Positions 1,970 to 63,669 of a DNA stretch of 64,000 bases are shown piece by piece; the stretch's first letter is position 1; every line of letters starts with the position of its first letter. Source of the DNA: Eledone cirrhosa (taxonomy: Eukaryota); NCBI GenBank assembly GCA_964016885.1, contig OZ024742.1, positions 275,032,001 through 275,096,000 of the forward strand. The letters run 5' to 3'. The notes under the pieces are model-generated. The model was not told the origin of the DNA, made no database searches, and saw only the letters and a program-made list of their open reading frames with translations. A program made the position numbers and the translations under genes.

Positions 1970-3724
1970 GACAGAGTTGACATCCAACAGCTTCAATGTC
2001 GATGCTAGGAAAGTGGAAAAAATGTCCCAAAGTAAGCAGTTTGTTAATCTACCATTCCCAATTAATTATATACCAATTTGTTATGTATGTGTACGAAAGT
2101 GTGGTTGTTTGAATATTTGATGTATTCTATTGTTCATACACCTTCAATTCTTCACCACACACATTTCATTCTTATTATTACACAATTTCATATTATTTTC
2201 CTTCGTCACTTTTTTTCATTATATTCTATGTCTTCTTCATTTTTTAACAGCTTGGATAACAATTCCGATTTCATTGAAGACTAACAGCATAAATCATAGG
2301 AACTTTCCAATCTGATTTGTTTTCATTTCACTAACAAAGGCAAACCGATCACATATTTCCGTTTGAAAGAAAAAGAAATAACGATTTCTCATCATAAAAT
2401 GGGTAACCTCTGACCTGCAGCAGCATGATCTCAATAAAACTTATCCATAGTCTCTTAGATTTAAATGTGTAAATGGACTTAACTAACATTAAAGATATTT
2501 AAGTTTAGAAGTTCTTCATTCAGGTCAAACTTTTAAATCGCCACTATTTCTATGATAAACCCCCGCACACATGTGTTTGTGTGTATGTGTGTGTGTGTGT
2601 TTGTGTGTGTATGTGTGTGTGTGTGTGTGTGCGTGCACGTGTGGGATTATAAGATCAGATAAACTTGGATATTGTTGGTCTCAATTCACACAAACCATGT
2701 CTAAAATAATATCAACTGGTAAAGACATATAAGTCATTGCTCACTCAAAGAGGCAATCATTTTATTTCTAAATATAACTGATGTAGGTTGTTTGTGCCAT
2801 ATTTCTTCATTTACCGTTTGGGGTACATGAAGTGTTTTATTTCCTGGATATACCTCTGGATAACTTTTATAGTGTAACGTTCGTTGATATAAAACAGTTG
2901 TGGCTGCAACAGTGTTATATATATTATTTCTATGCTAGACAAACTCAGTTGATTTTCCTTTGGAAAATACTTCCTGTAATTGGCGTACTGTTCAGAATAT
3001 GGAAAATAATTCAATATGTCGAAATCGATTATTGTAATGGTCAAAAGAATGAAAAAAATTGCAAAATTAAATCAATGATAAAATTATCAAATGAATTATG
3101 ATAAAAATAATCCTTGACGTAGACAGAGATAGATATATAGATAGGAATACATAGAAACAGAATGCGTAATGTATAGATCGGAAAAATCAATATGTGTGTG
3201 TGTTGTAAAAGCATAGTGATTTATTTCGCTACCATTTCTAGCAAAACCAGTTACCATGACGTTGATGGATAGATAGATAAATTGATAGAATGATAGATAG
3301 ATAGATAGAGAAATAGATACATAGATGAACAGGAATACATAGAGACAGAAAGAGTAATACATAAATAAATACAACTCAACTGTCATTTATAGCGAGACAG
3401 GTTACCAAAACAGATCACCGTGTACGACAGAAAGGGCACACAGACAGAAAATATAGGGCCAAACGCAGACACTCTAACAGATGTATCCACACGTTTGCTT
3501 AAATGACTGCGTCATTATAGTTCTTTGTCTACCTAATCTCTTTCTGTAACTCTCTTACTAATTCTGTAGCTACCTCGCACTTATATCTATATCTATATCA
3601 ATATCTATATCTATATCTATCTATCTATTTCTCACTCTCTCTCTCTCTCTCTCTCTCTCTTTATATATATATATATATAATATAAAACGAAAAATCAGTG
3701 ATGCATCTGAACTCAATTTATTGT

Positions 3725-3762
3725 GTGTTACAATTGTTTCGCCGGCGGACAGCTCGAGACAC
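3725..3762 (-). ncRNA. hammerhead-like motif with 2-nt core deletion (left arm)
   Basis: GTGT-CTCGA-GCTG tccgc CGGC-GAAAC AATT GTA-ACAC, followed by AATAAA. The core reads as CT[GA]CGA lacking GA. Confidence 0.5.
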
Positions 3763-4392
3763 GATCATTGTGTGGATCTGTCTGATTCTGGAGCCGCAGG
3801 TTTGACGGACACGTCTAATGATTTCGGAGCAAATTCTTTCACTGAGGTGTTAGCGTCAAAAACTTCATCCTCTTCGCGCGTCCTGTTATTGGCCGCTGGT
3901 TGTCTACGTCATCATAATTCTGACCAACAGATATCACTCGGCTGACCATCAGCTGTCCTGTGTCTGCCACACTTCGATGAATTACTGCTGGGTTTGGTAG
4001 TTCACATGCGCACTCATACACACATACACACACACACACGCACAATCAAATAGATAACGACAGTCGTACGCATGGACTCCCGCTATACACGCACATTTAA
4101 GGAGAAAATATAAACCTATAAACATACGCAGACGCAGACGCCTGCCTACATGCCCGTATACTTCAACACACACACACCTACAGGCGCACACACATGCATA
4201 CGCGTATATATACCCGTATACACAAACACGTACAAACATATACATAGACACCCCTCCCCTTTCCTTTTCCCCCATGCACACACACATACACACAAAGTCA
4301 TATAAAGATGCACAATGGGTTATACATGAAAGGATGCATCTTGTTATAAACATGCACATATTTAAACAACATAACCATATACATATATGTAT

Positions 4393-4489
<97 letters not shown>

Positions 4490-5190
4490 CATATATACAT
4501 ACACATACATACACATATATAAAAGCAATATAAAATATATTAAAAGCATACATATAACGTCGCATAAAGATACACAGTGTGCTATACATGGAAGGATGCG
4601 CCCAGTTGTATGTATCTACAGAGATGTTGTTACGTTGCGAACATGGATCAAGCGACATATTGAATCTTTGCGCAAAGTCACATAATGGGCGTTCATGCTA
4701 TTACAGTAAATAGTAAATAGTATGCGCAGACCGTACATAGAAAATGCGTGCAGAAAATATAAAAAAAAAGAAAACATATATAAAAAGAAGAAAGAACGTG
4801 TATGCGTATGAGATAGTACAAAAGAGAAGTATGAGATACATACGGAAAATACAATATGTGTTACAAAATGGAATACGTGGAGAGTATGGACTCTCTATTG
4901 AAAAGATACACATGCATGGGGAGGGGGTGGACCGGCCATACTGGAGTATTTCACTGTGGTTGAGGTATACTGTCTTATAGGCGTAAGGCTTTTGACTGAA
5001 AGTCAATGGAATCCGGGTCAACCTGTCCCAGATCAGGTGATGTTCTTGCCTAGGGTGACGTGGAGAGTTGGGTATGCATCCTGGGTTATTTAAGCTTACC
5101 CCACGGGGCATATATAGTCATCAGGGTATGGTGTCTGATCCCTTGAACCCGTTTCGCCGCTCTGGTCGGTGTGCGCTCCGCCGCATGCAT

Positions 5191-5628
5191 TTACCCTGTG
5201 CTGCCCGGTGGATTCCATGCGGAGAGTGTGAACCTTCTCTGGTGTCTGCACGTCATGATTATTTCCGATTTCAGATTGACCGCATCATCCTTCAGTCTGA
5301 CTATCTCCAAGGACTCAGATACGCATAGCCTACACTTTCTATTTCCAGCCGAGTACTCATTCGCGTGCCGAACGATACTCCAGTCAAGGGCATACGGGGT
5401 GCCTTTGTTTTTCAACTCCCACACCAGGTCCGCCAGCCTAGTAGAGTGCCTCTTACTCCGGTCCTTGAAATAGTTTATGTGGTTATACATCCGCGATTTA
5501 AAGGTCGTGGATGTTGCGCCGATGTAGGTGCGCTTTATATTGTGCGTGCTAACCACACATTTATATACCAGGCCCTTCGTTAGGCATCTTCCCTGCAGGG
5601 GCACTGAGTGCCCGCTCTGCAATTGCAC
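5191..5628 (-). pseudogene. Penelope GIY-YIG endonuclease domain (5'-truncated)
   Basis: PLQGRCLTKGLVYKC...YIGATSTTFKSRMYNH...WELK...WSIV...CRLCVSE...NLKSEIIMTCRH matches the PLE GIY-YIG/CCHH signature. Confidence 0.9.
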
Positions 5629-5908
5629 GTTCTGTCGTTATGTTGTTCATTTCGGACGACTGGCCCTTGATCTGCTACGGCCCTCTCCCGATTCTCAGGG
5701 TGTTGTTCCGCCGACACGGTGGTCTCTCCTCCGCCACTGATTCCCGCCCGGCGTTGGATTGGATTTGTTCATCTTCCGCGGGCATGGCGGCCGCCGTATG
5801 AGCTGGGTTGTTTTCTTTTTTTTATGTATTTTCTGCACGCATTTTCTATGTACGATCTGGGCATACTATTTACTGTAATATATGTATATATGTATATATG
5901 TATATGTG

Positions 5909-5942
<34 letters not shown>

Positions 5943-5967
5943 TATACATGTATATATATATATATAT

Positions 5968-6055
<88 letters not shown>

Positions 6056-6927
6056 GTGTATATATATATGTATATGGTTATATTGTTTATATATGAGCAT
6101 GTTTATAACAAGATGCATCCTTTCATGTATGACCCATTGTGTAACTTTATATGACTTTGTGTGTATATCCTATTTGTGTGTATATATATATATGTATGTA
6201 TCTTTGTATGCGCGCGTGGGCCTGCATGTGAATATGCGCATATTTGTAAGAGTGTATATGAGCCAGTGTGTGTGTGTGTGTGTGTGTACAAGCACCCACT
6301 GTAGGGAAAGGGCTTGTTTGTTTGTATATATATATATATATATGGGGGGGGGGGTGCGAGCGAGTATGTATCTCTGCCTGTATATATGGACACGTGTGTG
6401 TATGTGTGTGTGCATGGGGGAAAAAGGAAAAGGAGGGGTGTCTATGTATATGTCTGTACGTGTTTGTGTATACGGGTATATATACGCGTATACATGTGTG
6501 TGTGTGTGTGTGAGAGAGAGAAGTATACGGGCATGTAGGCAGCCGTCTGGGTATGCGTATGTTTATAGGTTTCTATGTTCTCCCTAAATGTGTGTGTATA
6601 GCGGGAGTCTATGCGTACGAATGTCGTTATCTATGTGATTGTGTGTGTGTGTGTGTATGTGTGTGTGAGTGCGCGCGTGGACGTGTGAACTATCAAACCC
6701 AGCAGTAATTCATCGAAGAGTGGCAGACACAGGACAGCTGATGGTCAGCCGAGCGATACCTGTTGGTCAGAACTATGATGATGTAGAAAACCAGCGGCCA
6801 ATAACAGGACGAGCGAAGAGGATGAAGTTTTTGACGGTAACACCCCAGTGAAAAGATTTGCTCCGAAATCATTAGACGTGTCCGTCGAACCTGCGGATCG
6901 AGAATCAGACAGATCCACACAATGATC

Positions 6928-6965
6928 GTGTCTCGAGCTGTCCGCCGGCGAAACAATTGTAACAC
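6928..6965 (+). ncRNA. hammerhead-like motif with 2-nt core deletion (right arm)
   Basis: Identical to the left-arm motif: gtgt ctcga gctgtccgccggc gaaac aatt gta acac. Confidence 0.5.
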
Positions 6966-7091
6966 ACAATAAATTGAGTTCAGATGCATCACTGATTTTT
7001 CGTTTTATATTATATCATACTCTGGTCTAAGAACATAGAGTGCTCAACCGGCATACCGCCTCTGGAAGCATCTTAGCTACCATCATACACT

Positions 7092-7173
<82 letters not shown>

Positions 7174-7406
7174 TTAGAAACACACAGATACATGCGGACA
7201 TACACATATATACATGAATGCATCCGCACCCAACTGTGAGTTAAGGGTGCCAACTTCACCGATGTTGCTCAATGAATGACTGGGACAGACCAATTCAGTT
7301 GAACTAGACTGAACCAGTATCAGAGTTAAAAATACATTATGAAGAGAGAAGAAACATTTAGATATAATTAGTAATAAAATGTATCATACCTAAACTGCTC
7401 CTAAAT

Positions 7407-7496
7407 TCCTCGACTACGTAGTTTCGTGGCATAAACAAAAACAATATATCATAAAGACATAGAGTCCCTGCGAGGTCTGCCGACTTATCAAGAGGA
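7407..7496 (-). ncRNA. type I hammerhead ribozyme, U3-A8 core variant
   Basis: Reverse-complement copy of 7931-8020. Confidence 0.75.
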
Positions 7497-7930
7497 TACC
7501 TCATTTTACTAGTCTCAAGAACGCGTCTACACGACGTGAGAAAGAATCCCAAAAGGCGGAGGGGGAGATAGTCACGCGATATAACGGTCGAGAAACAGAG
7601 CTAAGCCTCTTATAACCCCGAAGAAAATACCACGGAGGCGGAGGGGGTATTTATATCGAGGCCGTAGAAGAGGTGGTGAAGAAGGCGAGAAGTATGAGTA
7701 ATGGAAGCTTTCCAGCTGTCCCCACACCTCAAAGATTGCTCGACCAGAGGGAGTTATTAACAATATATTTAGAAACACACAGATACATGCGGACACACAC
7801 ATATATACATGAATGCATCCGCACCCAACTGTTTCTCGATCGTTATATCGCGTGACTATCTCCCCCTCCGCCTTTTGGGATTCTTTCTCACGTCGTGTAG
7901 ACGCGTTCTTGAGACTAGTAAAATGAGGTA

Positions 7931-8020
7931 TCCTCTTGATAAGTCGGCAGACCTCGCAGGGACTCTATGTCTTTATGATATATTGTTTTTGTTTATGCCA
8001 CGAAACTACGTAGTCGAGGA
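7931..8020 (+). ncRNA. type I hammerhead ribozyme, U3-A8 core variant
   Basis: Stem I TCCTC/GAGGA; core TTGATAA; stem II GT(C)GGCA...TGCCAC; GAAA; palindromic stem III ACTACGTAGT; GUC cleavage triplet. Confidence 0.78.
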
Positions 8021-8092
8021 ATTTAGGAGCAGTTTAGGTATGATACATTTTATTACTAATTATATCTAAATGTTTCTTCTCTCTTCATAATG

Positions 8093-8149
<57 letters not shown>

Positions 8150-8153
<4 letters not shown>

Positions 8154-8282
8154 AGGAAAAGCGAAGTAGTTTCAGAACATCTGAAACTAGTTCGCTTTTC
8201 CTTATTCGATATTTACTCCGTCACTCCTATGTGGAAAAAGTACGTTGAGTGCTTGAATTGAATTTCATCAATGTTTACCCTA
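8150..8282 (+). mobile_element. very short PLE-type tail fragment with 5' hairpin
   Basis: Hairpin aataaggaaaagcgaagtagtttcaga-aca-tctgaaactagttcgcttttccttatt (8150-8206). The sequence is homologous to the reverse complement of 60511-60612 and is flanked by (GA)n and (TA)n. Confidence 0.7.
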
Positions 8283-8509
8283 ATATATATATATATATAT
8301 ATCCCTTTTATTTTTAATTCTATCATTGTTTTTATTTTCATTTTCTATTTTTTACTTTTTACCTCCCTCCTTAAAATCTCTCTTACTCCTCCTAACAGCT
8401 CCCGTTCTCTCTCTTTCAGAACTGTTTACATGCCAACATAATACCAAGAATGAGGGGCTCGTTCTACTGACATGGCTTTAAAAGGCTGTTTGAATAATTG
8501 CAAACGAAT

Positions 8510-8698
8510 TGAATAGTGGCAGTATCGGTAAGGGTCGGACGCCATGCTTTGAAGCATAGAGTTACCTCCCTTTATGATCTGAGTTCAAATCCCGCCGAGG
8601 TTAACTTTGCCTTTCATCCTTACGGGGTCGATAAAATAAAGTACCAGTAATGCACTGGAATAATTGCTGGCCTTGTGCCAAAAGTAGAAACAATTATT
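8510..8698 (+). mobile_element. tRNA-derived SINE, family 1
   Basis: B-box-like GAGTTCAAATCC; conserved core tttgcctttcatccttacggggtcgataaaataaagtacc (resembles a Nin/Deu-type SINE domain); tail ccttgtgccaaaagtagaaacaattatt. Five copies in the window. Confidence 0.9.
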
Positions 8699-23600: not shown

Positions 23601-24797
23601 CGTTTGCTCTTTTGCTTTTTGTTGAAGGGACGGGCTCCGATGGTCATGCGGTTTATCTGCTGTCGGCTCCCGCTACGTGGAGGGCTGGACATGCCGTGGC
23701 TGATGATGCTCAGACACGCGCTCAGGCTACGACATCTCCACCTCTTCCTCGCCGGTGATCAGGTGTGGTCGCCGTTTGCTAGACGCGTCTTTCCCCAGCT
23801 CGTCTCCTTGACGGAGCTGCAGACCTGGGTCAAGCGAAGACCGAGAGAGAGCACTTGGAGTTTGGAATGTCGTCAGGCGCTCACAGCCCTCGACCAGTCT
23901 GGCAATGTGATCGGTGGAAACTCCACCTTGTCGTACTATGGAGAGGAAGAGCGACGACGTACTTGAGGAAACTCTAGGCGCCGACGAAAATCTCCTCGGG
24001 AGAACTCTCGGGCCGGCGCCTATGGACAATTTCCAGAAATCTCTGGCCTGGCAGTGCTATCGAGGAGATTTGCCAGTTCTGGATAAACTCTACAGGCATG
24101 GAAGTGCCGTCAACCGGGCATATCCGAGATGCACGCAGAGTGACAAAACCGTCCTGCACGCACTCGTCCAGTGTTGGAGCATTGCTGACTTGTGGGCTTG
24201 TGTCGAACACCTGCTGTCGCGTGTATCATGGTTCCAGCTATCAGCTAAGTCCATCATGAGGATTTCCCCGCCGTCTTCCTTTTGTCGAGAAGGGCAGGAA
24301 GTTTTTATCTGTCTGAAGGCCATGGCGAAAGAGATAGTGTGGTGGATGCGTTTGAAAGGGTTGAAGACGAGCACTTACCTCTTCGGTGATGCCCTGATTA
24401 ACTTTTTCAAATTTCATTTGAAAAGGAAAATCAGGGTAGAGAGGGCAGTTCTCTTCTCTTTCCAGCATTTTGTCGAAAGATGGATGAAAGAGGCAAGCAT
24501 GGCCCGAATGAATAGGCCTACTCTGAGTATGCGCCTGTAAATTGAAGATGGAAAACTGGGAGAGGTCACTTGCCCTGGAGGTCAGGGTCACCGTGACTTT
24601 TTTAATGGGCTTTCTCCACGAATTTCCCTCGGAGGTCTCCCCGCCTATTGGGGAATTTTTCATTGTTTCTTTTTCTTTATTACACCTTTTGTTTTTGCTT
24701 TTTTACACGCAGAAAAGCCCATACGTACCGTGCTGTATTATCCTTTGTTGTTCTTAATGTTATTCTTTGTATCAACCCTTGTGGTTAATAGAAAAAG
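20690..24797 (+). mobile_element. L1/Tx1-clade LINE with ORF1 (zinc knuckle) and internally deleted ORF2
   Basis: 5'UTR similar to 16150-16270. T/N-rich ORF1 start; EGRRPRCVVCGEGTDLKAFCP knuckle; jump near 22260 to the pre-RT linker (no APE); RT motifs NFRPITML, DQSKAFDRVDH, QGCPLS, AYAD; 3' UTR ends ggttaatagaaaa. Confidence 0.92.
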
Positions 24798-24799
24798 AC

Positions 24800-25992
24800 T
24801 TACCTTCTACCTTCAATGTGTTAGGACTTGGGATAACACTAGCTACCAAACTCTCTAGCGTAGATTTCTTTGACATTAATTTAGACCTTCGCGCACACAC
24901 CTACAGACCCTTCCATAAGCTTAACGAAAAATTCAATTACATTTACAAGAACTCATGCCAACCTCCTACTGTTTTTAGAAACTTCGTAAATAATATCAGT
25001 ACAAGAATCTCAAACCTCTCTTCTAATAAGGCTATCTTTGACAGAGCGGCATCCTGCTATAACAGGGCGTTAGCTAACACCGGCTTCTCGCAACATATCA
25101 CTTACTCTCCCACTAACAGCAACAGCAATAGGAAAAGAAAGCGTAACACTAGACGAACTATCTGGTTCTCTCCTCCCTTCTCACACAACGTTAAAACCAA
25201 TGTAGGCAAAAAATGTCTAGCCCTCTTAGATAGACACTTTCCCATATGTCATAAATACCGCTCCATCTTTAACCGACACAAAGTAAAACCAGGATACTCC
25301 TGCGCTAAGAACATGAAGGCCCACATCACCAACAGCCCAAAGAGCAACACCCCACCAGGGTGTTCTTGCCGTAAGCCCGAAGCTTGTCCCCTTCAATAGC
25401 AATGCAACACACCCACTGTAGTTTATGAAGCTGTGATCACTTCCAACCGACCAAATCAACCACAAGAGGTCAAATCCTATGTGGGTATGGCGGAGGGCCG
25501 ATTTAAGGAACGCTTCCTGAACCACCAGTCGACCCGGACAGACGTTCATCCACGAACCTCGTGAGCCACGTATGGTCACTCAAGGACTCAAGTATAGACT
25601 ATCCCATCAAATGGAAAGCCATACGCAAGGGGCAATCCGTCATGTTGAATATGTATTGATGAAAGAATAAATATTCTAAAGAGATTACGCAATAGCGATT
25701 GCCTAAACTCAAGAAATGTATTCTTCACACGTTGTCCACAGTCTGGAAAGACCCCTTACATAACCACAAAGCTCCGGATTGAATTACAACATCCTAATTT
25801 TTTTATCAACTAGAAACTTTCGGACTTTCGCAGTTATCTCCCTTACACTTCTCGCATACAATTTAGTATTGCCTGAGGGAAGTGAGCGTTTCTGCGCATG
25901 TGCGTTCATAGGGTTGTCCTTCCTGTTCCGTATAACCATGTCTCTTACGAGCTGAGGATCCGCTAAGGTGAAACAAGTGTTCTCTGTATGGT

Positions 25993-26597: not shown

Positions 26598-29500
26598 CAG
26601 TGGCGTAAATAGCTTTTAAAGCCAGGGGGAGGCAAATTCGATCTAAAGGGGGCCCACCAATTCCATACGCTCATTTCCATCGGCTGCAAGGAAATATGTT
26701 CATACACGCATATAGAATAGATAATAATTTATAATAGAGTAGACAGCCACATAGATTACAGAGTTAGCATGTTCCGTGAAAACTTTATTAACTGCGAAGA
26801 CGGTGGTCTATCTACAGAAAAAAAAACATTCAATAAAACTAGTTTTGCAATCGATTATTCACCAACAAAAATTCGTATGTACAACAAATCGTCCATCTAA
26901 AACTTTACTTTCACATTCGAGCACATCACTTGTTCTACAGTTCTAATTTGCGATGTTTTACTTCAGAAAATTTTTCAATCACGATGCTGAAGTCAATTTT
27001 TTCAGCCAGTTCTCGCTCTATGTACATCATTGCCAGAGCATTCAACCACTCTTCACTCATGGTACTACGCAAATAATTTTTTATCAGTTTGAGCCTGCTG
27101 AAGGTTCGCTCAGCCTGCGCCGAGCTAACTGGAATAGTTATGAACATTTTGTATAAGGCAAACACGTTCGGATAGGTTCTATCTAAGTCATTAGAAATCA
27201 TAAACGGAACGATCTCAGAACTCAATATGGATTTATCTAAACACACTTCCTTGTAAACATCTTTGAATGATAAATACTCGTCGAAGATAGTTTCATTTTC
27301 GATGTCACCCTCGTAGAATTTCACAAGATTATCGATTCTCTCTCTATTGCATGTGTCGTCGTCGTCGAAGTGCGCCGGTATCAAGCACGAAAAATCCTTC
27401 ACTAGATCGTGCAAGTCGGCAAAACGTTCGTTAAAGCTACTAATGATTCTATCTAAGATAGTGAAATAAACGTCCCGTTTAAAATGCTGACTCATCGTCT
27501 CATGAGGTTCGTCACTGGCATTTTCGTCATGAAAACGCTTCTTTTTTCTTTTTCCTTTTTCTGTTGTAAACTCTGGTTCAACTTGACATTGCTCGGCGAG
27601 ATTTTTAGCGTCTGATAATGTTCGGTCAAAATATTCATTTGAGCGGATGTCTTCAATTTCTTTTACTACATTTTTAATCATGACGTCCGCGGAATATAAG
27701 TCGATAGCATCCTTCTGCAAATATTGTGAAACAGAATGCAGCTTTTTAAGTAAATTCTGAAAAAACTTTAACATGAAAATGAATTCAAACTTGCTCACAT
27801 TTAGTAGCAAACCTCTGGCCTCGGCTAATACTTTCATAATACTTTCGATGTTGTGAACATCCCCACTTATTATCCTCTCTAGTGCACTTATTACTGCCGG
27901 TAAGTTATTAATGGTAGTCTCTACAGCCTGAATGTGACTAAACCAGCGCGTATCTGAGAGCTTTTTTAATGTTAATACCGTTGAAGTCAATAGTTTTTCT
28001 TGTTTTTCTTCGAAGATTTTCGGCCTTGGTAAGCTTGATGTTAAGAAAACATACAGGCTCTCCAATATACCAACAAATAATTTACCATACACTGACGATT
28101 GGCTAGCATCGATTAACACCAAGTTCAGGTTATGAACGTAACAATGGACATAAACATCTTTCGAAGAGCATCTCTCTTTAACTCTAGCCTGAAGCCCAGA
28201 AATATGGCTGGATATATTCGACGCTCCGTCGTAAGCTTGTCCCCTAGTATATTGAGCATCCAAGGATAGATCCTGGAAAAGAACTTTCACAAGCGTATCG
28301 TAAAATGATTCAGTGGCTGCTGATTCTAGTTCACAAAACGACAGGAAATGCTCCTGTGCGAGGCCACTTTTCGATACATATCGCAGTGACACAGAGCATT
28401 GATCCTGATGCGAAATGTCTATTGTGGAATCGACGATGACTGAATAGTATTTTGCCGCTTTCACTTCCGTGATTATTTGTTGAGTACATTCGTTTGGCAG
28501 GCATTCTATGAATTCGTTTTGTAATTTTGGACTTAACTACATAGGCTGTCTTTTAGTGCGCCCAGGCGAGAATAAATGGTTTTCCAGGATCGTATCATAC
28601 TTGGCCATCAATTTTAACAATTCAATAAAGTTTCCTTCATTTTCTGATTTGGCGCCAAGTCCAGCATATTCCCTGTGACCTCTGAAGGCCAGGCCTTGTT
28701 TTGCGAGAAATAACGTACAATCAAGCAATCGCCTCAATATCTGGCGATTTCGTTCAATTCGCTTCTTCTCTTCATGGATGAGGTTATCGATCACTGTTTT
28801 ATCTGCGTCCAAACGATATTTTGTCATGAAGTATTGCTTTTGTGCATTGATGTGAATGGCACTTTTCTCATGCTTGGCAATTTTTTCGATTCCCTTTTTG
28901 AAGTTTGCCATCCCACACTCTTAATTACCCCAAGTCTTCGAGTAAGATTCGCATTTTCATCAGCACACAGCCAACAACAAAAGCAATATAGTCTGTTGGA
29001 TTTAGGAGAGTATACTAACCAGTGTCGGTCAACTTTATGGATTCCAGCACACTTTCTCTTGTACCAACTGATGTTGAATTTTTTGTGGTTCGAGTCGAGA
29101 GGGAAATCAGCAAAATTATCTTTCAATCCTGGCTGACAAAGACCAACGGCCATGAGGGGGCGAATTAGAGGTATCGTCAATGGCCTGTTCTCGAAATGTT
29201 TCGGGTCGCTTGGATACTTCTCTTGTAAATTCAACATGCATTCTACTGGCTCATACTCTGGGATTTGTTTTGCCAATGTAGTTTCCTCTGAATCATTTTC
29301 ATTTTCAGATTCCGATACAGCCATTTTCCCCTCTATTGAATTCGGATCCCCAGTTGGAACTACATCTTCAGTGACTACGACGGTTGTTGAGATAGTCGAT
29401 GGACCTGGGGCATCTTCGACGTCAGGTTCTCCTGACTCTCCAGTGCTTTTCTGTTTCTCCAGTTCATCTGACCAGACCGACTCGCCGGAAATTCCGGCAG

Positions 29501-30030
29501 TTACGTTGCTTTGGGATGCGTCACTACTTGTTGACGAAGACTGTTGACTTTTCAGAAAACTTGTGATTAGATGACATTTCTTCGCAGATTCTTCCGTGGC
29601 AGCTTGTCTAGCTTCTCTCCTCTTTGTTGCTCCAATTTTGTAAGTTTTTTTATGCAGCATTGTTAATGAACACTATATTGACACTGTTTTCCAGTGGCTT
29701 TGTCTTAAAAAAAAATTCTTCCTTTTTCCTTTTTCTTTTTTTTTCTATAGGTCTTTAAGTGCCGAAATAGCTTGTGATTAGAAAGCCACTACACTTACCG
29801 CATTTCTTTGGTCCTGGCAAAGTCGTTGGCTGGTTTTCCTCTCTTCCACGTGTGTACAATCCAGCTCGCCGATCGCAGCCTCAAATTGCACGCCGGTCTC
29901 AGTCCGATGACCGCCGTAGAAGAGAAATGGGCCTCTCAAGCTGACGTCACATCTGCTCGCCCTTCCGGTCGAGCACGCTTCCGGTCAAGCACGCCCAGCC
30001 TCCGGCCACTACACACCACACCATACCCAC
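26598..30030 (-). mobile_element. hAT DNA transposon (Tip100/ZMYM1-like group)
   Basis: Left terminus CAGTGGCGTA (TIR-like) at 26598; internal transposase. I could not find a matching right TIR, so the right boundary is approximate. Confidence 0.8.
26935..29660 (-). pseudogene. hAT transposase split into three ORFs by frameshifts
   Basis: TTF-type Zn finger WLVYSPKSNRLYCFCCWL; LAKQGLAFRGH...NEGNFIELL (DUF4371-like); YSVIVDSTIDISHQDQ, GQAYDGAS, YVHCYVHNLNL, SDTRW; hATC dimerization PVSSAQAERTFSRLKLIKNYLRSTM. The distal 509 aa are open. Confidence 0.93.
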
Positions 30031-31870: not shown

Positions 31871-31929
31871 CTCTGCAATATATATATTTCGGTGACAGCT
31901 ATTATTGGCTGTGACCTCTTCAGGCAGAG
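31871..31929 (-). ncRNA. type I hammerhead ribozyme
   Basis: CTCTGC-CTGAAGA-GGTCACAGCC aataat AGCTGTCACC-GAAA-TATATATA-TT-GCAGAG. Confidence 0.85.
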
Positions 31930-37806: not shown

Positions 37807-37861
37807 ACTGCCTGAAGAGGTCACAGCCAAAGATGGCTGTCACTGAAATATATATAGCAGT
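37807..37861 (+). ncRNA. type I hammerhead ribozyme
   Basis: ACTGC-CTGAAGA-GGTCACAGCC aaagat GGCTGTCACT-GAAA-TATATA-TA-GCAGT, immediately followed by AATAAA. Confidence 0.88.
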
Positions 37862-41455: not shown

Positions 41456-44288
41456 GAAATATATAATAAAACACACCCACTGTTCGGTTTTGTTTGGTTT
41501 TCGATTTAGTATATTTTATATTTCTATAATTAATTCAACTGGCAATCGATGTTTTTCATTGATTGATTAACAGTTAAAAATATAGATATAAATATAGTAT
41601 TTCAGAGCTCTGTCGTCACACAACTGTGACATAATAAGAGATACTATTATGTTTCCGTTGTATTGCTGTAATATTTTATTTTTCTGTTTTTATTTATTGT
41701 TGTCTCTGTTTGCAAATACGTGTGTGTGCATGTTTTTCTGTTTGGTGTGTTTGTGTGTTCTTGTCAGAGTCTGTGTTTGTTTGTTTTCTATCTTTGCTTT
41801 GTGTGTTTATATGCGTTATCAAGCTACAGCCGTCATCATATGCAGATAATTCATAACAGAAATAATATTAATACACACAGGTACGTTTAAATAGGTGTGT
41901 ATGTATTTATGTTCTTCTGGTTTTATAATGTTATAAATGTTTACCAAGAGAGTGTCGGTTTCTAACATAGATACAAAACTCTTTCATTAAATTTTAAAAG
42001 AACATCAACTAGGTTGATATGTATGCATGTCTGCATACGTGTGCGTACGCGCGCGCGCGCGTGTGTGTGTGTGTGTGTGCAGGTATGGATGTATATATTT
42101 GAGTTACATGTGTCCATGTGCATATGTTTTATATAGGTAACCAGATCAAGACTTTTCTTCATCCCATTTATGTCCTTGACATAGAGTTGCAGGTCATCAA
42201 GAAAGAAATTATGGGTTAGGTTTGTATTTCTGTCTTCATGTGAGCCATTGATGTATCCATCCCATTTCTTGAGAAGAAAGGATAATGTGATTAATGATAT
42301 GATAAATAATAGCACAGAGAGAGAGTCTCCTTGAAATATACCCCTGCGATATTCTTTTTGTCAGTGGAAGTATAGTCATCCTTTTTTTCTTTTTAACTTT
42401 AGGATAGTAGTCCTAGAAGAAGATAGGTTCTCTATGATGCTGATAATAGGGTTTGGTATATTAGCAAGATGGAGGGTCTCCATGAGTAGGGAACAGTATC
42501 AAATGTTTTCCTGTAGCCCAGCGAGACTTTAACCATATTCCTTCTAAGTTGTCGTACCTCTGATATCACAGTTTTGTTAATTAGGAGTTGTTCAGCACGC
42601 CCCCAAACAACTTTCTTACTAGTTGCTTGCTCATTCGTGAGGATGTTATCACTCTCGCAAGAAAAATAACTTCAGGCTAGCTCTATACATTTCATGTATC
42701 AGGTTCTGGAATGCAATATGTCGGTAGTTTTTTGCCAGGTGAGTGTCTTTGTTCATGGTGACCAGTATTGTTTGTGCTAATATCAACCAGCCTGATATAT
42801 GTGCCCCACCCTGGAGAGCTTGGTGGTAGCGGTTGACAGAATGTCAGTTTTTTCTACAACTAACCGACAATCAAGTATCCTTCTGGTGTTTTCTTAACAC
42901 AGTCTCAAGGGAATCATCATTTATTCTGTACGTTGTTGTGGTAGTGTAGGTGCAGTAGTTATTTTGGATTTCTTTTAGTCACATTGCATCTTCTTTGAAA
43001 TTCTTCTTTCACCCCATATTTTTTCTCCAGAAAGAATCTATGTATTTCTGGGTCGGAGTCTCAGTGGCATTTATTACTTTACCTTCCATATCTCTATAAA
43101 CTGATGTTTGGTTTCTTCCGAATATTTTATTACTTATTTTTCTTTCATCTATCCTTTTCTGGTATCGAAGTTTCTCGCTGACAGCTCTCAATTCTTATTT
43201 CAGGGGGATCAGCTTATATTGAAGAGATCTGGTTGTACTATCTCCAAACATCGTTTCTATTTCATTTTTTACCCTTTGTTGGTGAGGAGTGTAGTTATTT
43301 TGTTTCCATGTAAAAAACATTGTCACTTATCCTATATTTTTCCGTAAGTCAGCAATCCTTTTCTCTATTTTAGTAATATACTAGCAGAATGGCCCGGCGT
43401 TGCTCGGGATTTGTTCTAGGGTTCTTATATATTTGATATATATTTATCCTTATCGAGCCTCGTGAAATAAATACGTTTGTTTATATTTTGTTATTGTGTA
43501 TGCAAAAATATCTGTACACGAATATATAATTATATATATATATATAAACTATAATAAAGGGAGGAGCGCGGGACTGTGTACGGTTTATAATTTGTTATCC
43601 CATTAGTAAAATAAGTTGTATTACTTTGAATAAATAAGAATGAATATTACATAATTTACCTACTAAATTTCGTGGTTGTTGATTCAATATATTTTGTTTA
43701 TTTAAAGATTCACTTTTTTTTAATTTCTGAAATATCAACACTTCCGGTGGCGATCGCTTAAATAAACATATTAATTTTCTGGGACTAATTTTCTCCTAAT
43801 GCAGTTTATATATAATATCGTCTGTTTTAATGTATCATGGATTACGTTACTGATTACATAAGTCAGTGTAACGCAGTCTTCGTTCAATTTCTATGTATTA
43901 TATATTGTCATTTACGATATCTACATATATATATATATACCTGCGTATAATATCAATATACATACCACAAATGCTAGCAGAAAACCATCCTGCTAGTATA
44001 TATTAAAATAACAGATTAAAGTTTAAGCACAGAATCGCTGCTTTCACCCTTAACGGGATCTTCTGAAACTAAAAAAAATCAATCTGTGAACACAGAAGTA
44101 AATATTTCGAAAAACGTTACACACACTATATATATATATATATATATATAGTATGTAGGAGTTGTATTTAATTTGTTGGAATTCCGACAAACATAAATGT
44201 TTATAACTGATATAGAGCACTCAACAAGTTACTGGAGTAATTATTCCAAGATAATAATAAATTGAAACTATATTTATAAAACCATATT

Positions 44289-44353
44289 TATTTTATTATA
44301 TATATTTCAAGGGCGACCAAGCAAACCTTGGTGCGCTTTCATCAGATAAAATA
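44289..44353 (-). ncRNA. type I hammerhead ribozyme
   Basis: TATTTTAT-CTGATGA-AAG cgc ACCAAG gtttg CTTGGT cgcc CTT-GAAA-TATATA-TA-ATAAAATA. Confidence 0.85.
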
Positions 44354-44489
44354 CAAAATTTGTTCTATAAATAATGACATACCCATGGAAATCACACCTT
44401 AACGGTCCGAAAATTAGGTGGATAACGAATTTTCGGACCGTTAAGGTGTGACTTCCATTGGTATGTCATTATTTATAGAAAAAATGTTG

Positions 44490-44554
44490 TATTTTATCTG
44501 ATGAAAGTGCACCAAGATTTGCTTGGTCGCCCTTGAAATATATATAATAAAATA
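44490..44554 (+). ncRNA. type I hammerhead ribozyme
   Basis: TATTTTAT-CTGATGA-AAG tgc ACCAAG atttg CTTGGT cgcc CTT-GAAA-TATATA-TA-ATAAAATA; 8-bp stem I overlapping AATAAA. Confidence 0.87.
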
Positions 44555-44613
44555 AATATGATTTTATAAATATAGTTTCCATTTATTATATATCTTGTGC
44601 CTAAAGTAGAAAC

Positions 44614-60810: not shown

Positions 60811-63660
<2,850 letters not shown>

Positions 63661-63669
63661 GAATCATTT

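Follow-up and report, generated by a model that had tools for sequence, protein, structure and literature searches.

The hammerhead motifs of Penelope-like elements (PLEs), as far as the available text of PMC4209133 describes them, have a palindromic helix III and occur as opposite-strand pairs 100–700 bp apart. In S. mansoni, PLE hammerheads with a U3–A8 core account for about 1,300 hits and share the UUGAUAA heptamer that is found here (PMC4209133). Covariation to U3–A8 is also reported for natural hammerheads, in which it is known to be active in vitro, in the accessible part of PMC3088659. The standard arrangement of PLE insertions is a partial tandem with an adjacent inverted 5′-truncated copy in a microsatellite target, in the portion of PMC8557442 that is available. 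For one PLE investigated in vitro, the available portion of PMC11167929 describes internal priming, targets that are AT-rich, and hammerhead cleavage with the assistance of protein; that cleavage was unnecessary for insertion. Non-LTR retrozymes have been described (Cervera and de la Pena, 2020, PMC7229834; PMC7761336, each as partly accessible). In the accessible part of Li et al. (bioRxiv 10.64898/2026.07.22.740005), retrozyme units are 51–972 bp, a PLE origin is argued, and one of nine predicted retrozyme dimers was active, with the other eight being uncleaved.

The 64,000-nt stretch of Eledone cirrhosa DNA analysed here (the window) is microsatellite-rich animal sequence. It contains at 7167–8095 a young insertion of an abundant, non-coding, 595-nt head-to-tail repeat with a U3–A8 type I hammerhead motif; the repeat is likely to be a non-LTR retrozyme that PLE enzymes copied from RNA into a (TA)n tract. 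The insertion has (TA)n at both sides; to its left lies (CA)n(TA)n and to its right (TA)n(GA)n, which makes the target one compound (CA)n(TA)n(GA)n microsatellite, and both ends show AT-rich microhomology to this target. Read on the minus strand from 7832 to 7167, the sequence is a more-than-unit copy of 666 nt, made up of a single 595-nt unit (7238–7832) and a 71-nt overshoot. This partial tandem, 1.12 units within the window, was recognised by self-comparison as a direct repeat of 71 nt with one mismatch and a spacing of 595 (7167–7237 and 7762–7832). At 7829–7832, a 4-nt microhomology that the right arm shares, at its start, with the 71-nt repeat, seen as the overlap of the BLAST pieces 7762–7832 and 7829–8095, marks the inversion point at which an inverted, truncated 267-nt piece of the unit is attached. 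This right arm (7829–8095, plus strand) ends in (TA)n and corresponds to the part of the unit at 7332–7598 (minus strand), the left arm; the arms are 267 nt each, 230 nt apart, and 99.6 % alike, with a single mismatch at 7587/7840. The first-pass annotation had described near-identical inverted arms with one mismatch at 7333–8094. The arms were as described, but the insertion itself is larger, and the 71-nt direct repeat had been missed. Its view that the insertion is recent is supported by the finding of two mismatches in 338 duplicated bases.

No reverse transcriptase or GIY-YIG frame is present within 7167–8095, and the longest ATG-started frame is 76 aa when the unit, which has 42 % GC, is doubled. 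A coding role for the insertion was also considered and was dropped, because a Pfam search of 7575–7964 returned no match. The combination of a partial tandem and an inverted 5′ arm is known PLE anatomy, and it supports, together with the (TA)n target, the link to PLEs that had been suggested from the sequence.

Each arm carries one hammerhead motif. The first is a type I motif at 7407–7496 on the minus strand, with U3 at 7491, A8 at 7486, the palindrome at 7413–7422, and a predicted cut after C17 at 7412. Comparison of the arms shows that the second, at 7931–8020 on the plus strand, is identical: stem I is assigned to 7931–7935 with 8016–8020, the core lies at 7936–7942 (U3 at 7936, A8 at 7941), G10.1–C11.1 is 7943/8001, GAAA is at 8002–8005, and the 10-nt palindrome of stem III (8005–8014) is followed by C17 at 8015 in a GUC site. 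The core fits the pattern (C/U)UGAN(G/A)A ... GAAA ... UH with a Watson–Crick 3–8 pair, here in its U3–A8 form, and the hammerhead, palindrome, and GUC site proposed in the first-pass annotation are thus borne out in both arms. G10.1 comes directly after A9, with no unpaired base between 9 and 10.1 and a bulge at 7945 instead. What had been read as an unusually long stem II loop of about 45 nt is probably largely paired: the approximately 46 nt at 7950–7995 are predicted to form mostly a 14-bp helix with five G·U pairs and a 5-nt terminal loop (7435–7471 on the minus strand, 7956–7992 on the plus arm; pair probability >0.8). Since the two hammerheads are on opposite strands, no single transcript can bring them together as dimer partners.

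A strict descriptor that accepts any Watson–Crick 3–8 pair found just these two matches in the 64 kb, and none in 60 block-wise dinucleotide shuffles. The Rfam hammerhead models gave no match at gathering score in the window, and were absent among the 52 matches with E ≤10 within 7000–8400.

To survey the family, contigs of four sequencing runs (X1, X5, X17, and X22) were matched to the unit, with thresholds of 80 % likeness and a 5 % share. Part of the unit is contained in 20 of the 24 listed runs (17 organism codes, 16 studies), and no RNA runs are among the listed runs that contain it. In X1, 1,593 contigs match the unit, 621 at ≥99 %, 403 at 95–99 %, 272 at 90–95 %, and 297 below 90 %. The joint 7832 to 7238, which goes back 595, is present in three of the four runs (X1, X5, and X17), and in X1 its depth is 20,208, compared with 5.6–14.9 for the eight diverged X1 contigs listed. 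The unit therefore closes head-to-tail and is very abundant; a figure of thousands of copies is a rough inference, sequencing depth being no copy number. No run of two consecutive units that each bear a hammerhead was seen: the window holds 1.12 units, and no listed contig spans the unit.

Both arms of the insertion carry letters that are rare in the family, at 7458 (about 1 % of X1 depth) and 7468 (23 %), the right arm having the left arm's minority letters at the matching sites. It is likely, because these rare letters are shared, that both arms were derived from one template in one event. In eight X1 contigs, (TA)n forms a loose end before 7332, and this locus may account for one of them; none of the joints listed for the four runs is the inversion joint. 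Long predicted hairpins have their bases at two of these positions: 7332, where the (TA)n end recurs, and 7832, the inversion point.

Traces of the unit are also present in contigs filed under other organisms. X17 has three contigs of 151 nt with a depth of 2–2.6, and X22 has five reads, less than 90 % alike and covering only the CA/TA-rich part, in 1,938 million letters. Horizontal transfer was considered for these and was set aside, residence in those organisms being without support and cross-contamination being likelier; at such trace depth the unit is likely a marker of cross-contamination. A metagenome scan with an 18-mer gave seven loci, all seven of which match over just 18–24 nt, as expected by chance. 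An intron just downstream of the hammerhead, suggested by donor-, branch-, and pyrimidine-like stretches seen by eye, was also rejected, as no skipping joint was seen in the four runs.

The U3–A8 pair is family-wide among relatives at least 80 % alike. At U3 (7491) and A8 (7486), no other letter reaches 5 % of depth in X1 or X5, the summed depth in the bin with both positions being 484,350 and 175, respectively, and neither run has a variant at ≥5 % anywhere in the core, stem I, or palindrome. A family of mostly CUGAUGA paralogues, which the first-pass annotation had named as evidence against its reading, was not what was found. The same annotation had argued from the double change, together with the palindrome and the GUC site, that there is selection on function. 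This argument is weaker than claimed: only 16 of the 595 positions vary at ≥5 % in X1, the other 579 being as invariant as U3 and A8, and just 1.2 variants would be expected in the 44 nt of the core and stems. For these reasons, the fixation shows descent from a U3–A8 master without showing selection on the pair. Twelve of the 16 variable positions are in the 163-nt middle part of the unit (P=1e-4). Nor is the swap itself a surprise, since it has been described in nature and in PLE hammerheads in the accessible parts of PMC3088659 and PMC4209133, which were the only reports naming U3–A8 in a hammerhead in a literature search with thin coverage of subscription papers.

Folded as a circle, the hammerhead strand of the unit has a predicted free energy of −182.5 kcal/mol with 64 % of bases paired, and z scores of −6.1 and −6.6 against two shuffle sets, compared with −0.5 for the opposite strand and −3.0 to +0.8 in all 25 control windows. 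The unit is thus predicted to fold strongly only on the hammerhead strand. Thirteen of the 16 common variants are at paired sites, nine keeping the pair and four breaking it; among transitions at paired sites, pairing is kept in nine out of ten, against 59 % expected (P=0.04). The three common substitutions in the stem II extension all toggle between A–U and G·U, and there is a 2-nt deletion in its loop. This pattern supports an RNA phase, but is not proof of selection, because the tally uses the structure predicted from the window copy and because A-to-G editing gives the same pattern. On the hammerhead strand, all seven common A/G differences are in predicted helices, six opposite U and one opposite C, a distribution that RNA editing would produce. 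Minor letters of the A-to-G kind outnumber those of the U-to-C kind by 6 to 2, which is not significant (P=0.14).

Predictions for the motif itself differ between settings. Every pair of its three helices is possible, and stems I and II are predicted to form in the isolated motif and in a dimer; co-folding of two isolated motifs gives a double hammerhead (−60.1 versus 2 × −23.2 kcal/mol), with a palindrome duplex of −12.9 kcal/mol against +1.5 kcal/mol for the monomer hairpin. In native context, the predicted probability of stem I is ≤0.07 in all 33 prefixes, and a co-transcriptional window with an actively folding monomer found no support. The hammerhead is predicted to be blocked in the circle by the strand 7345–7333 (7333–7345, minus strand), which would pair with the 3′ half of the motif (7420–7407) and whose helix end adjoins the recurrent (TA)n junction at 7332; the active fold would cost 8 kcal/mol in the circular unit. 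The hammerhead would likely cleave as a dimer. A transcript of either strand that reads through both arms is predicted to fold back on itself over 267 bp. The two hammerheads at the locus would therefore not be a working pair, and the inverted pair is best viewed as a predicted by-product of insertion rather than a two-ribozyme device.

In many respects the unit resembles metazoan non-LTR retrozymes as described in the available parts of the literature: it is non-coding, is arranged head-to-tail, and has a type I hammerhead, its GC content is below 45 %, its circle is predicted to be highly self-paired, and PLE origin and mobilisation have been proposed for such elements. At 595 nt it is within the 51–972 bp range given in bioRxiv 10.64898/2026.07.22.740005, but exceeds the 150–450 bp given in the accessible part of PMC7229834, and it differs in having a U3–A8 core and an inverted 5′ arm. 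Most animal retrozymes have, in the same part of PMC7229834, a hammerhead that is predicted to be free in the circle, whereas here it is predicted to be blocked. The likeness to PLE hammerheads, as they are presented in the accessible text of PMC4209133, extends to G10.1–C11.1, the palindromic helix III, a 5-bp helix I, a bulge within helix II like that of D. virilis, and opposite-strand pairs 100–700 bp apart; the S. mansoni Cercyon variant has the same U3–A8 core and, in family 3, the same UUGAUAA heptamer. Relative to that text, the palindrome here is 10 nt rather than none or a few, there is no unpaired base between 9 and 10.1, stem II has a long extension, and the element is without a reverse transcriptase–endonuclease frame. 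The insertion likewise matches those of PLEs in the available portions of PMC8557442 and PMC11167929 in its partial tandem, inverted 5′-truncated copy, (TA)n target, and ends inside the RNA downstream of the hammerhead. It differs in having no coding sequence, and its outer ends differ by 165 nt, by which the left copy extends beyond the arm end, in place of a 30–40 bp tail at one end. By description only, in the accessible part of PMC2837043, the pDo500 repeat of Dolichopoda is a hammerhead-bearing unit of similar size, described there as satellite DNA. A literature search with thin coverage of subscription papers, which is weak evidence of absence, turned up neither the 595-nt family nor any retrozyme unit bearing an inverted arm. 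With the core swap already described, the repeat is a further retrozyme-type member and not a new system.

The element is likely to be non-autonomous and of retrozyme type, with a PLE reverse transcriptase as its mobiliser. Two hammerheads, joined via the 10-nt palindrome or aided by protein, would cut multimeric transcripts after GUC, giving 595-nt monomers that may circularise and whose ribozyme is predicted to be locked by a strand lying downstream. The (TA)n tract would then be nicked by a PLE reverse transcriptase/endonuclease, with priming inside the RNA at AT-rich microhomology; copying of more than one unit, followed by a strand switch at the 4-nt microhomology, would produce the inverted arm. 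A more far-reaching version of this reading is doubtful at present. It holds that a viroid-like circular RNA of 595 nt has copies in the genome by the thousand, and that its U3–A8 hammerhead is locked, like those of plant retrozymes and viroids, by a complementary strand of its own and is freed only in dimers. The copies would record PLE reverse transcription round the circle, with more than one unit copied, ends at hairpin bases, an inverted 5′ arm, and a (TA)n target, and the A-to-G changes in helices would come from RNA editing.

Several other elements are present in the window. A separate PLE-type element at 3675–7015 has long inverted arms, 88–94 % alike, around a GIY-YIG-like frame at 5191–5637 (minus strand; 5194–5637 in the Atlas lead), which has an Atlas lead score of 0.95 and a cysteine-rich CxC...CP linker just upstream in a different frame. 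That frame has no Pfam match, and none of 126 candidates among longer proteins was found to be a homologue; a relaxed scan found no hammerhead in the element. At 44247–44597 there is a fold-back element, 92.6 % self-inverted, with an opposite-strand pair of hammerhead-like motifs with a C3–G8 core and an AT palindrome as stem III, found with a loose descriptor without a shuffle control; related C3–G8 hammerhead-like motifs, also from the loose descriptor, are at 37807–37861 (plus) and 31872–31928 (minus) in repeats 72 % alike. Frames at 24758–25399 (plus) and 63337–63663 (minus) resemble PLE fragments by eye, the former having PF26215 HTH_animal clusters in Atlas and a cysteine-rich motif at its end. 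Nearby PLE-like remnants are possible helpers for the unit and share no sequence with it; the autonomous PLE with this tail that the first-pass annotation had envisaged was not found, no PLE in the window sharing sequence with the unit. A 59-nt hairpin at 8149–8207 adjoins a (GA)n tract and has related pieces elsewhere in the window, and frames of 533, 127, and 282 aa at 26935–29672 (minus) resemble a hAT-type transposase by eye. The SINE-like stretch at 8520–8660 presumably resembles an octopus SINE.

The anatomy and the type of hammerhead are the same as at PLE ends, and the window has other hammerhead-like or inverted PLE-type elements (44247–44597 and 3675–7015). Both points favour an alternative in which the locus is an ordinary 5′-truncated PLE copy with an inverted end and the sequence is an autonomous PLE's terminal repeat (pLTR). 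This explanation is nevertheless unlikely. The unit closes on itself at high depth, with 30 of 30 bins covered in both X1 and X5, and is without a long frame; the share continuing into unlike sequence in X1 is zero, and the best-supported loose ends, among the 16 of 125 listed, are TA/CA repeats or short. Another alternative is a satellite-like repeat that was amplified at the DNA level. The hammerhead of such a repeat would be an inherited, non-cutting relic, with U3–A8 fixed only by descent from one master, in keeping with the 579 of 595 positions that are as invariant as the pair, the absence of predicted stem I in native context, and the inactivity of most predicted retrozyme dimers in one assay, in the accessible part of bioRxiv 10.64898/2026.07.22.740005. 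A satellite does not account as well for folding that is confined to the hammerhead strand, while the (TA)n ends, the inverted arm, and the copying of more than one unit are in line with retrotransposition, and amplification of this kind is judged improbable.

It is also conceivable, though very improbable, that a fold-back artefact, of the assembly or of the library, gave rise to the inverted repeat in this repeat-rich region, given that arms 99.6 % identical lie between microsatellites and that their inversion joint is not listed in the runs. Against this, the arms are separated by 230 nt and have one difference, (TA)n ends at 7332 recur in eight X1 contigs, and older inverted elements, with 88–94 % identity, are found in the same window; the hammerhead family is real even if the inverted repeat were an artefact. 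Retrotransposition of a retrozyme-type unit from RNA by PLE enzymes is therefore the preferred explanation of the locus.

As U3–A8 was already known, the finding is a modest one. The locus is a young natural substrate for tests of the U3–A8 core and of dimer cleavage, and if the reading of a locked circular RNA copied by PLE enzymes is true, it would be direct insertion-level evidence for the proposed mobilisation of animal retrozymes by PLEs. Neither Rfam nor CUGANGA searches detect this very abundant family, and retrozyme counts in genomes of this kind are therefore underestimated. The locus joins a retrozyme-type unit to a PLE-type insertion anatomy, and so bears on the still indirect claim that the retrozymes of animals are mobilised by PLEs.
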